Source: a virus (Duplodnaviria; Caudoviricetes). Taken from it: DNA of 64,000 bases. Shown here piece after piece: positions 1,556 through 7,393 of the stretch. Made by a program: the position numbers and the translations under genes. The DNA lies in IMG/VR virus record IMGVR_UViG_3300038443_002533, positions 160,001 to 224,000 of that record. One strand, written 5' to 3'. The notes below the pieces were generated by a model. It did not search any database. It was not told the origin of the DNA and saw only the letters and a program-made list of their open reading frames with translations. Position 1 is the stretch's first letter; the number at the start of each line of letters is the position of its first letter.

Positions 1556-1822
1556 ATGGCACTTATTCCTACTGGCGTTAACATCATCTACGATCTGTTG
1601 AACGCCCCGAAAGACAAGAACCCGCAAGAGCAGATGGCGGAACTGGGCATCACGTGCCAACGTGTTATCCCCGAACCCATCATCCATCTCTGGCGTTTCA
1701 TCTCTGTTGACCGCGCGACGATTCCCGCTGAGTTGCCCCCGTACCTCAGTCTGGTGTATCTGAACGTCCAGCAATGGAACGAAGAACTCGAAACGCTGAA
1801 GCAACTCAGCCTGAAGAAATAA
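1556..1822 (+). CDS. hypothetical phage protein
   Basis: 88-aa ORF directly after the HAD gene. Confidence 0.75.
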   Translation: MALIPTGVNIIYDLLNAPKDKNPQEQMAELGITCQRVIPEPIIHLWRFISVDRATIPAELPPYLSLVYLNVQQWNEELETLKQLSLKK

Positions 1823-1874
1823 ACGGCGTACCACCCACTTGACCCCGACCGCAGTCAGGACCAAGTGGTGTAAG

Positions 1875-2225
1875 TTACGGGTTGTACGGCACGGCCAAAC
1901 CGTTGCTGACGAGTTGATCGTTCAGGCTGGTCGAAGTATTCGGCAGATACACATCCGCCAGATAGCGACCATACTTCTCCTTCTTGTCCGCGACGGTTTG
2001 GATCACCACCGGGGCGTTAGCCGGCAGTTGTTGCTGAAGCCAAGCGCGTGAATCTTTCCCGGCTTGGGTGCTGACTTCGGGGGCGTTGATACCGTTGAAG
2101 CGGCAGGTCATGTTGATGTGGATATCGCATCCCAAGTCAACATTGAATTCTGCGGTATCGCCATCGATGACGCGAATCACGGTGGCGTTACGGATGTACA
2201 CATCTTTCTTTTTGGCGGCTGTCAT
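1875..2225 (-). CDS. thermonuclease / staphylococcal nuclease (SNase-like) protein
   Basis: VIRVIDGDT, RFNGINAPE, DKKEKYGRYLADV and LVSNGLA motifs; GGAG RBS upstream on minus strand. Confidence 0.9.
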   Translation of the reverse strand: MTAAKKKDVYIRNATVIRVIDGDTAEFNVDLGCDIHINMTCRFNGINAPEVSTQAGKDSRAWLQQQLPANAPVVIQTVADKKEKYGRYLADVYLPNTSTSLNDQLVSNGLAVPYNP

Positions 2226-2273
2226 GGTGGGCTCCTATGCAAAGGGGGTTCATAGCATCCGCGCAGTACCAAT

Positions 2274-2428
2274 GGTCAAGATGGCGAAGTGGAAGACGCA
2301 GCTGACGCTCCGGGTGCAAGTGATCAGTATTTGAACGAGCAGTAGGGTATCTACCGGGTCCATGATCGGGGCGGGTACTCAGATAAACTGTTCTAGTAGA
2401 ACGGAGGTTCGATTCCTTCTCTTGACCA
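2274..2428 (+). ncRNA. tRNA-like RNA A: Leu-type D arm, 8-bp acceptor, enlarged anticodon loop and variable region
   Basis: GGTCAAGA/TCTTGACC-A acceptor; D stem GCG/CGC; GCTGA/TCAGT stem with 18-nt loop; T arm GGAGG-TTCGATT-CCTTC. Confidence 0.7.
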
Positions 2429-2439
2429 CTCAGTTTTAT

Positions 2440-2515
2440 GGGGAAGTCGCCCAGCAGGTTTATTGACCTGACCCACTGTAGGCACGCGCAGGTGCGAATC
2501 CTGCCTTCCCCGCCA
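2440..2515 (+). ncRNA. tRNA-like RNA B lacking an anticodon arm
   Basis: GGGGAAG/CTTCCCC-G-CCA; T arm GCAGG-TGCGAAT-CCTGC; single extended arm GCC...GGC. Confidence 0.7.
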
Positions 2516-2532
2516 CTCAACCGTAGTACGTA

Positions 2533-2689
2533 GGGCATGTAGCTCAGTGATAGAGCACCGTCCATTACCCTTGGGGTCGCTGGTTCGAGTCCAGCCTGGG
2601 GAGTATGCGAATACTCGCTGGTAGCTCAGATGGTTAGAGCACAAGGCTTGCTTAGACGGAGGTCGTGGGTTTGATCCCTGCCATGTCCA
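2533..2689 (+). ncRNA. tRNA-like RNA C: Ala-type outer tRNA with a nested circularly permuted tRNA
   Basis: GGGCATG/CATGTCC-A (G3.U70); CCGTC/GACGG; inner CCTTG/CAAGG, T arm, GCGA-capped acceptor stem and D arm. Confidence 0.8.
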
Positions 2690-2698
2690 TCAAGAATT

Positions 2699-2807
2699 CT
2701 TAATAAGTGGTAAAGTAGATCAACGCGGAGAACCGACGCGCTACAAGGGATACCTCGCTCTGGTTGGTTCACTGGAACGAAGGAGTTTGACCCTGCCACT
2801 TATTAAG
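2699..2807 (+). ncRNA. 109-nt RNA element closed by a 14-bp terminal stem
   Basis: CTTAATAAGTGGTA (2699-2712) pairs with TGCCACTTATTAAG (2794-2807); internal hairpins. Confidence 0.55.
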
Positions 2808-2826
2808 TGTTTTTAAGTTTCACGTA

Positions 2827-2964
2827 GGGCGTTTAGCTCAGTTGGTAGAGCACGGCTAAAGGTGGGCACCGACAAACCCACACCAGCTTAACAGGCTGGG
2901 GCCGAAAGGCAGTCACCATTCATTAAAGCCGAGGTCATGTGTTCGAATCACGTAACGTCCACCA
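2827..2964 (+). ncRNA. tRNA-like RNA E: Ala-type acceptor with a 69-nt structured insert in the anticodon loop
   Basis: GGGCGTT/AACGTCC-A-CCA (G3.U70); canonical D and T arms; CGGCT/AGCCG stem enclosing 2858-2926. Confidence 0.8.
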
Positions 2965-2973
2965 AGTTTCAAA

Positions 2974-3138
2974 GGGTGTGTAGCTCAGCTGGTAGAGCGT
3001 AGTCATGCAAGATTGTGGGGGTTCGAGTCCCCCCATTCTCTCGATTGGGAATGTGGCGGAATTGGTAGACGCGCCGTTCTAACGGACGGTTATCACATTA
3101 GGCTAAGGTCATGGGTTCAAATCCTGTCACATCCACCA
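2974..3138 (+). ncRNA. tRNA-like RNA F: Ala-type outer tRNA with a nested permuted Leu-like tRNA (96-nt insert)
   Basis: GGGTGTG/CACATCC-A-CCA (G3.U70); TAGTC/GGCTA; inner T arm, CATTCTC/GGGAATG capped stem and Leu-type D arm. Confidence 0.8.
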
Positions 3139-3156
3139 AGTTTCAAGCAGTACCGT

Positions 3157-3234
3157 AGGGGAGTCGCCAAGTTGGTCCAAGGCCCCGGATTTTGATTCCG
3201 GCATTCGAAGGTTCGAATCCTTCCTCCTCTGCCA
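3157..3234 (+). tRNA. tRNA-Gln(UUG)
   Basis: Canonical cloverleaf, CCGGA-TTTTGAT-TCCGG, encoded CCA. Confidence 0.93.
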
Positions 3235-3315
3235 GATTTTCGTAGGACTGTTTGATGAACAGAGTAAAATCATCATGGTAGAGATACCACTTACTAGGCA
3301 CTAGGAGAATGTACC

Positions 3316-3780
3316 ATGGCTGGATTTGTGAAATTGATGTCGAATGAAAACCTGCCGGACGCAAGTCCGTTCAAAGGCTATCAGCTGATCAGCTTACCGG
3401 ACGCTGGCAAGGTCGAATTCAAACGTAATGAGCGAGGTCTCGATACGTGTGTGATCTACACCCCGGAGCATGATCCAGAAGAATACCTGATGTACGGCAA
3501 TGCGTATATCCTGAGCGACTCGGGTAAAACCATTGCTTCCCATGGCACCAACGTGCCCTGCGCATTGGAACCGGGTCAAGAGATCAATGACGCTAAGGTG
3601 GCGGTTAGCGCACTGCTTACGCTGGAACCTGACGATCTGAAAGCGGCCCTTTGCCATCTGGTTGCAACTAAGCCGGAAACCATCCGTGTCATGGGTGGCG
3701 TCATAGCCAATTTGGCGCGGGCCGGAAACGAAGCTGCTATTTACTCAATTCGTCCCGCGGTCGAACACATCAGCACGTAA
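3316..3780 (+). CDS. hypothetical phage protein inside the RNA cluster
   Basis: 154-aa ORF with AGGAG RBS. Confidence 0.8.
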   Translation: MAGFVKLMSNENLPDASPFKGYQLISLPDAGKVEFKRNERGLDTCVIYTPEHDPEEYLMYGNAYILSDSGKTIASHGTNVPCALEPGQEINDAKVAVSALLTLEPDDLKAALCHLVATKPETIRVMGGVIANLARAGNEAAIYSIRPAVEHIST

Positions 3781-3956: not shown

Positions 3957-4032
3957 TCCCCGATAGCTCAGCCGGTAGAGCGACGGACTGTTAATCCGCA
4001 GGTCCCTGGTTCGAATCCAGGTCGGGGAGCCA
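3957..4032 (+). tRNA. tRNA-Asn(GUU)
   Basis: Canonical cloverleaf, ACGGA-CTGTTAA-TCCGC, encoded CCA. Confidence 0.96.
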
Positions 4033-6739: not shown

Positions 6740-6823
6740 TAGTATGTAGTACGTAGTAGGTAGTGCATGATTTATCGGTGGAGATGGTGGGATCGAAAAC
6801 TCCATTCACCATCGAGAAAAATC

Positions 6824-7393
6824 ATGAAGAAAATTGCATCTTTGTTTCAACGTAACTATGACGGCGATCGTCAAGTGCGTAATGAAGTCGTTCCGGGTTC
6901 GGAATGGGTAATCCACGGCGAAGGGTATGCGACCCGTAAATGGGATGGCATGGCTATTAAGCTGGAGAACGCTCAGTTCTTTAAGCGTTATGATGCGAAG
7001 GCTGGCAGAACACCGCCCCCTGAATTCATTCCTGCCCAACCGGCGCCTGATCCACAAACTGGCCACTGGCCTGGTTGGGTGCCGTTGCAAGGGAAAGAAC
7101 TCAATCGCGTAGTAGCGGCGTATCAAGACAGCGGCATCACGGAAGACGGCACATTCGAATTCTGTGGACCGACGATTGGTACCCGCCATGGCGCCAACCC
7201 TGAACGGCTCACCAAGCACATCCTGGTGCCCCACGGGCAAGACATCCTGGCCGACTGTCCGCGTGACTTCGATGGGCTCAAAGCCTATCTGGCGAATGCG
7301 GATATCGAAGGGGTGGTGTGGTGGCATCCGGATGGTCGTAAGGTCAAGATCAAAGCAGCTGATTTTGGCCTCGTCAGGCACGCAGTAATCTGA
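6824..7393 (+). CDS. ATP-dependent RNA ligase (RLIG1/C12orf29, DUF5565-like)
   Basis: Ligase motifs RKWDG (I), EFCG (III), EGVVW (IV), KIK (V); HILVPHG motif. Confidence 0.7.
   Translation: MKKIASLFQRNYDGDRQVRNEVVPGSEWVIHGEGYATRKWDGMAIKLENAQFFKRYDAKAGRTPPPEFIPAQPAPDPQTGHWPGWVPLQGKELNRVVAAYQDSGITEDGTFEFCGPTIGTRHGANPERLTKHILVPHGQDILADCPRDFDGLKAYLANADIEGVVWWHPDGRKVKIKAADFGLVRHAVI

Follow-up and report, generated by a model that had tools for sequence, protein, structure and literature searches.

A tRNA-Gln(UUG)-derived tRNA-like RNA lacking a decoding loop in the RNA array of a jumbo phage

The locus and its genomic setting

The window analysed here is a stretch of 64,000 nucleotides (positions 160,001 to 224,000 of the virus record IMGVR_UViG_3300038443_002533). 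The genome to which it belongs is complete, has a size of 272,470 bp with direct terminal repeats and encodes chimallin, which identifies the phage as a nucleus-forming jumbo phage. ARAGORN at its default score called just two tRNA genes, tRNA-Gln(UUG) (3157-3234, plus strand), which is intact, and tRNA-Asn(GUU) (3957-4032). The phage tRNA-Gln is nearest to the tRNA-Gln of Ralstonia phages FLC4-3B and FLC1-1B and of Burkholderia phage FLC9. RNAs that derive from tRNAs but have altered anticodon arms form an array at approximately 2274-3138 on the plus strand, and its second element, RNA B (2440-2515, plus strand), is a 76-nt tRNA-like RNA of the tRNA-Gln(UUG) family.

The array is adjoined by a gene coding for an SNase-family nuclease (1875-2225, minus strand). 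Further from the array are found a gene coding for an RLIG1-like RNA ligase (6767-7393, plus strand) and a PolyA_pol/CCA-adding-enzyme head domain of a CCA-type nucleotidyltransferase (26073-26450, plus strand). Neither a Ro60/TROVE gene (PF05731) nor RtcB was found in the complete genome.

The spacers separating B from its neighbours A and C are about 8 and 18 nt long, respectively. The spacer 3' of B contains a GTAGTA-like motif (2522-2528) that recurs between many of the tRNAs in this group of phages and is consistent with a putative co-transcription. No sigma-70 promoter or terminator was found in the region 1800-3400. The tetranucleotide TATG at 2437-2440, which we take to be the phiKZ late-promoter motif at a start site, ends exactly on G1 of B; it comprises four bases only and the array neighbours are without it. 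Two minus-strand ORFs overlapping B (2188-2565 and 2393-2644) were discarded, as they were uncalled as genes in an independent assembly.

Sequence and predicted fold of RNA B

Analysis of the nucleotide sequence confirmed the coordinates and the length proposed for B in an earlier sequence-only reading, together with an acceptor stem of 7/7 Watson-Crick pairs, a T stem of 5/5 pairs and a G73-CCA end. The 5' strand of the acceptor stem (2440-2446) contributes to a G1-C72 pair in place of the weak 1-72 pair of the clade tRNA-Gln, and the 3' strand (2505-2515) carries the discriminator G73 and an encoded CCA. The T arm (2488-2504) has a loop with the change U55G.

The nucleotides at 2447-2460 correspond to former positions 8-20a, are near-unchanged with respect to tRNA-Gln (U8 C9, the D-stem 5' strand GCC, A14 G15 and G18 G19) and form the 5' strand of a predicted long arm. 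Former positions 21-25 (2461-2465), the 3' strand of the D stem, are changed at four of five bases; the D stem is destroyed and this segment is now predicted to provide the apical tetraloop and one G-U pair. The 5' strand of the former anticodon stem (2467-2471) is identical to that of the tRNA-Gln from locus L072, and its first four bases are predicted to pair with the old D loop. In the former anticodon loop (2472-2478) all seven bases are replaced, leaving neither U33 nor a purine at 37. The last segment (2479-2487) comprises the 3' strand of the former anticodon stem, from which C40 is deleted, and the variable region 44-48, and contains a GGC predicted to pair with the old D-stem 5' strand.

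The three-segment middle arm as drawn previously proved to be exactly the minimum free energy (MFE) structure (-30.9 kcal/mol, z -2.6), which represents 60% of the ensemble. The pairs of this arm were predicted with probabilities of 0.87-0.96, the same fold was predicted when B was kept inside its flanks, and G18/G19 were predicted to be paired across the two registers of the arm, which differ by 2 kcal/mol, with a probability of at least 0.999. The architecture predicted for B is a three-way junction and not a cloverleaf. The earlier statement that B has no anticodon arm holds for the predicted fold but not for the sequence, in which both anticodon-stem strands remain with one base deleted.

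Comparison with canonical tRNA (RF00005) showed that the 7-bp acceptor stem, the T arm and NCCA are present in B. The canonical D stem is absent, the partners of G10/C11/C12 at 23-25 being all changed, and a 5-bp anticodon stem with a 7-nt loop was not found. In the T loop the canonical U54-U55-C56 is interrupted by G55, a feature left unmentioned in the earlier reading, which occurs in 0/120 canonical tRNAs of the fetched loci. B was called neither by ARAGORN nor by Rfam. A perfect acceptor/T-arm half (top half) followed by NCCA was found twice on the plus strand of the real genome, namely in B and, by inspection, in tRNA-Asn, versus 0 times in 200 shuffled genomes. When the middle arm was compared with shuffled middles, 10% of these were equally stable and 5.7% were equally stable as one hairpin; the top half thus goes far beyond chance expectation, whereas the stability of the middle arm alone does not. 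A pseudoknot between T-loop 55-57 and linker 46-48 was dismissed, since it would use up the bases needed to span the T stem.

Descent from tRNA-Gln(UUG)

Searches with nhmmer using B against all fetched loci revealed that the top ten matches were tRNA-Gln(UUG) genes, aligned over nearly the full length. Among 135 tRNAs of 20 isotypes, both the best global and the best middle-only score were obtained with Gln. A covariance model derived from B gave clade tRNA-Gln genes as the nine best non-self matches (34-44 bits), and the Gln-profile score of the middle of B exceeded that of 100,000/100,000 shuffles. The Gln genes compared are clade relatives that stand in for the actual ancestor of B.

Relative to eight Gln genes, the base present in B is one seen in Gln at 7/8 positions of 8-15, at all positions of 27-31, at 4/5 of 39-43 and at 4/5 of 44-48, and is unlike Gln at 4/5 positions of 21-25 and at 7/7 anticodon-loop positions. 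B and the clade tRNA-Gln(UUG) genes (FLC1-1B, FLC4-3B, FLC9 and uncultured relatives) thus share U8 C9 GCC, A14 G15, G18 G19, the anticodon-stem strands, the variable region, the T arm and G73, whereas B differs from them in the replaced anticodon loop, the broken D stem, the deletion of C40, U55G and G1-C72.

A single-base gap suffices to align B with the 77-nt Gln genes. Since this alignment is in register, B did not arise by deletion of the anticodon arm, and its length of 76 nt calls for no explanation of its own; the tRNA length, previously regarded as a sign of mimic design, is inherited from the 77-nt tRNA-Gln via a one-base deletion. A deletion of the anticodon arm combined with insertion of a hairpin in the D loop was ruled out on the same alignment.

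These comparisons identify B as a duplicate of a phage-type tRNA-Gln(UUG) gene which is now, as judged from its sequence, non-decoding, with the anticodon loop and D stem lost and the acceptor stem, T arm and CCA intact; the old D and anticodon strands are predicted to re-pair into one arm. The Gln ancestry of B is newly established here. In the literature that was searched, no tRNA with D and anticodon arms re-paired into one arm was described.

Origin of the single arm

The changes separating B from tRNA-Gln were clustered, affecting 7/7 sites of the anticodon loop, 4/5 of positions 21-25 and 4/30 in the rest of the middle. The chance of finding all seven loop sites among 15 changes in 42 sites is 2.4e-4, and comparison of the two blocks (11/12) with the rest (4/30) gave p=3e-6, this grouping being post hoc. 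In the predicted fold, what used to be the 5' strand of the D arm and the D loop is base-paired to the former anticodon-arm strands plus position 44. Taken in the register that adjoins the GCC/GGC pair, the new loop approximates the reverse complement of D-loop positions 13-19: 5/7 positions agree for the present D loop (p=0.018), and 6/7 for a D loop of ancestral type, which has C13 (p=0.007). With any register allowed, p ranged from 0.02 to 0.18. Template switching between imperfect inverted repeats gives multi-base changes without selection (PMC8604942), and the observed pattern suggests that the new loop was copied from the D-loop complement by such a switch. Selection for pairing of the D loop with the anticodon loop in the RNA would leave the same pattern. 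A spacer inversion between inverted repeats was rejected by inspection, as it fails to reproduce the sequence of B.

When the same sites were filled with random letters, 43% of the variants folded at least as well as B and 35% did so as one hairpin. Among randomly mutated Gln genes, 7-12% folded as well as B and 4-6% as one hairpin, and comparison of changes at paired and unpaired positions of B gave p=0.19. Construction of the long arm by selection was therefore not supported by the shuffles, the mutated Gln genes or the same-site random letters. Since 35-43% of the same-site random variants fold as well, the single arm is predicted to be largely the next-best (latent) fold of the broken Gln scaffold.

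Decoding and charging

The determinants of glutamine identity are the anticodon, the 10-25 pair and pairs of the acceptor stem, while a G1-C72 pair counteracts recognition in the indirect glutamine pathway as an antideterminant (PMC9976931). From the Gln identity set (YUG anticodon, 10-25 pair, weak 1-72 pair and G73) only G73 is left in B. Unlike its array neighbours, B is also without the alanine mark, having G3-C70 and G73 instead of G3-U70/A73. The features of RNase P substrates, U-1, G+1, a 7-bp stem and RCCA (PMC11143913), are all present in the sequence of B. The proposal that B is a substrate mimic is therefore retained for the acceptor/T/CCA half with its RNase P features, while a synthetase or EF-Tu role is unlikely, the Gln determinants being gone and the Ala mark absent. 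By its sequence features B is unable to decode and has lost Gln identity, and we infer that it is an uncharged CCA-ended RNA presenting the acceptor stem and T arm.

The non-decoding character proposed earlier was upheld by the missing D stem, U33 and purine 37, and by the energy of the best cloverleaf-like fold. Such a cloverleaf can indeed be drawn, with a 4-bp anticodon stem, an 8-nt loop and CCA at sequence positions 34-36, but its energy exceeds that of the MFE structure by 9.6 kcal/mol and its ensemble weight is ~1e-4. That B is an odd decoder, either as this cloverleaf with a Trp-like combination of CCA and G73 or as a D-armless tRNA with its anticodon in the apical loop, is hardly credible, even if the long arm may approximate the reach of a D plus anticodon helix. 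The Trp reading was ruled out by the loop size, by U33 and R37 and by the energy. The apical loop has 4 nt, and interpreting it as an 8-nt anticodon loop was ruled out as well, its sequence being D-arm-derived and its UUG out of register; neither form was called by ARAGORN or Rfam.

Serylation is the single charging route left open to B. An aminoacylated mimic of the kind proposed earlier, bound by EF-Tu after charging by a synthetase that ignores the anticodon (SerRS being the most plausible one), would agree with G1-C72, G2-C71 and G73, which match the bacterial tRNA-Ser acceptor, and with the anticodon independence of serine identity (PMC9976931). This possibility is very improbable: serine identity resides mainly in a long variable arm (PMC9976931), which is missing in B, the arm of B being at the D-arm position, and neither the alanine mark nor the Gln determinants offer another route.

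Retention of the acceptor stem and T arm in RNA B

Columns invariant in Gln are changed in B at 2/22 sites of the top half versus 15/33 of the middle (Fisher p=0.006). The probability that the 12 pairs and the CCA would all persist neutrally is 0.023 if the low per-site rate (4/30) is applied, and <1e-5 with the overall rate of the middle. The stem differences with respect to Gln, C50-G64 and G1-C72, retain pairing in B; these compensatory changes may predate the loss of function. The top-half statistics moderately favour selection, and the support is only moderate because clade relatives stand in for the actual ancestor and B was picked for its perfect stems. Since G18/G19 are sequestered in the predicted arm, U55G fits the loss of the G18 contact, and it could equally be decay.

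Searches for homologues

Nine related uncultured phages were reached through neighbouring proteins. Their arrays harbor many anticodon-less tRNA-like RNAs, in sets and orders that differ, and B was absent from the arrays of these nine relatives; the contig of the closest relative, L065, stops ~600 bases beyond the anchor gene, which makes it uninformative for B. Six whole jumbo-phage genomes, five from cultured phages and one from an uncultured phage, yielded ordinary tRNAs only when searched by BLAST and with covariance models. Among phage records, BLAST with B as query found partial matches in the T arm or D loop and no full-length match, and six DNA patterns searched in IMG/VR, metagenomes and GTDB gave, among the matches listed, chance or unrelated sequences only. 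The homologue search in phage genomes suggested with the earlier reading thus returned no B homologue in ~14 relatives or among the listed matches of the public pattern scans. B is a singleton among the loci searched.

Comparison with known RNAs

The T4 species 1 and 2 stable RNAs (rnaC and rnaD) resemble B in being small non-decoding RNAs in a phage tRNA cluster. They are presumably longer (120-140 nt), and B differs from them in being tRNA-sized and having a traceable Gln ancestry. The tRNA-like domain of tmRNA, which we take to consist of an acceptor stem, a T arm and CCA without an anticodon, resembles B in these respects, whereas the G3-U70/A73 mark, the tag frame and the pseudoknots are all missing in B, which has only 76 nt and is not recognised as tmRNA by ARAGORN or Rfam.

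Plant mitochondrial t-elements (PMC1920247) share with B a conserved T arm, an acceptor-like stem, a non-canonical middle and candidate substrate status for RNase P/Z. Unlike these, B is found in a phage, is free-standing in an RNA array, has an encoded CCA and has no mRNA end to define. YrlA and the bacterial and phage Y RNAs (RF02553; PMC4201824) are, like B, tRNA-derived and non-decoding, and some Y RNAs serve as substrates for RNase P and the CCA enzyme (PMC4201824). YrlA has a D-T elbow in permuted order, a Ro60-binding stem and an adjacent Ro60 gene, whereas B has the normal order and no free D loop; RF02553 gave no match on B and matched only its neighbours at 2558-2662 and 2912-3025, both below the gathering score. 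The D-armless mitochondrial tRNA-Ser (PMC7609411, PMC9976931) resembles B in the three-way arrangement of acceptor, one arm and T arm, but has a working anticodon loop where B has a D-arm-derived tetraloop. By the sequence features tested B is classified as neither a canonical tRNA, a tmRNA nor a Y RNA. It would in its working be most like a t-element or a mimic of the tRNA top half, and it can be grouped with the non-decoding RNAs encoded in phage tRNA clusters, which are poorly understood.

Possible role of RNA B

The reading we tentatively prefer, as the most likely one, is that B is an uncharged acceptor/T/CCA mimic or decoy. The anticodon loop of a tRNA-Gln duplicate would have been replaced as a single block, the likely mechanism being a template switch in which the D-loop complement was copied. 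B would then be co-transcribed with the array, be released from the transcript through RNase P of the host and trimming of its 3' end, and, since its glutamine identity is gone, accumulate with a free CCA-OH end. Host factors that recognise nothing beyond the acceptor stem, T arm and CCA tail might be titrated by B as a decoy or sink, and these factors could include defence toxins attacking the tRNA tail. Selection would act on the top half, the exact sequence of the arm being perhaps of small importance. The singleton status of B among the loci searched, the unexceptional arm and the choice of B for its perfect stems weigh against this reading, and the decoy role is a reasoned guess.

That B is instead a young pseudogene, a tRNA-Gln duplicate which received one or two multi-base template switches and a one-base deletion too recently to have decayed, is a serious alternative and ranks close behind the mimic or decoy. 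The block changes (p=3e-6, post hoc), the resemblance of the new loop to the reverse complement of the D loop, which template switching can generate without selection (PMC8604942), and the proportion of same-site random variants that fold as well all agree with it, as do the absence of B from all relatives examined and a U55G change tolerated by no canonical tRNA in the set. It is less compatible with the intact 12/12 top-half pairs and CCA (p=0.023 even at the low rate), with stem differences that keep pairing and with the recurrence in relatives of non-decoding neighbour elements of the same kind. We consider it improbable that B is processing punctuation, that is, a t-element-like site serving only RNase P and 3' nucleases in the release of A and C. 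Its RNase P features (PMC11143913), the short spacers to both neighbours and the precedent of plant mitochondria (PMC1920247) would suit such a signal, but A and C possess acceptor-type ends of their own, and both A (in L022) and C-like RNAs are found in relatives that lack B.

The surface formed by the acceptor stem, T arm and CCA is exactly what several defence effectors recognise. The effector FaRel2 modifies minihelices, with determinants only partly present in B, and G2-C71 of B mismatches the C2-G71 determinant of one toxSAS studied in detail (PMC11559606). Jumbo phages are equipped with tRNAs and with enzymes of RNA repair that counter attacks on translation (PMC7824862), and phage resistance to defences attacking the tRNA acceptor end or CCA tail has been described as unknown (PMC12851939). 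A more specific version of the preferred mimic or decoy reading, in which a fold-switched phage tRNA is a stable, anticodon-less and uncharged decoy against defences of this type, is unlikely as it stands. The broader mimic or decoy reading is favoured by the context of B, an array of anticodon-less tRNA-like RNAs such as relatives also have, in a chimallin phage that itself encodes an RNA ligase and a CCA-type enzyme.

If functional, B would be the simplest test case in the array of tRNA mimics of this phage, because its identifiable ancestor shows which parts were kept (acceptor, T arm and CCA) and which discarded (anticodon, D-T elbow and Gln identity). It would also be a candidate counter-defence against effectors that cut or block tRNA tails, and a natural RNA fold switch starting from a tRNA. 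If a pseudogene, B would show how such arrays acquire members, a tRNA gene being duplicated and its anticodon loop then overwritten as a block.

Other tRNA-like RNAs in related phages

Inspection of the fetched loci revealed further tRNA-like RNAs. A clear homologue of the upstream element A (window ~2274-2431) is located at L022:9486-9644, with unrelated sequence at the place of B. The inner permuted T-then-D module of element C (window 2558-2662) closely resembles an RNA of Vibrio phage BONAISHI (L005:3994-4090), which lies just upstream of an annotated RNA-binding-protein gene; the window genome is without TROVE.

A tRNA-like RNA of 87-89 nt was found in three relatives (L022:14218-14305, L066:12462-12550 and L068:17520-17606). 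Its scaffold, with a long D stem and a variable arm, is presumably of the selenocysteine-tRNA type; it has no UCA anticodon and its CCA is not encoded. Minimal RNAs of 63-65 nt with acceptor and T arm and no anticodon arm were found in one relative each (L024:7126-7190 and L078:10841-10905). Anticodon-less tRNA-like RNAs of ~117 nt with G55 occur in unrelated phages at L031:11658-11774 (minus strand), L026:64-180, L040:7478-7594 and L055:986-1107 (minus strand), and as they were retrieved with a G55 pattern their likeness to B is biased.

In Xanthomonas phage RTH11 an unannotated tRNA-like gene (L004:5767-5848), in which the D arm is very short, one loop contains GGA, the variable arm is long and the end is G73-CCA, is possibly a D-truncated tRNA-Ser. 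Vibrio phage VPT02 carries an annotated 72-nt tRNA-Trp with a much reduced D arm (L075:3906-3977). In Vibrio phage BUCT194, an unannotated tRNA-like run (L073:280-960) located upstream of a DUF2828 gene has a repeated short TAACAGCAA motif replacing the anticodon arms.
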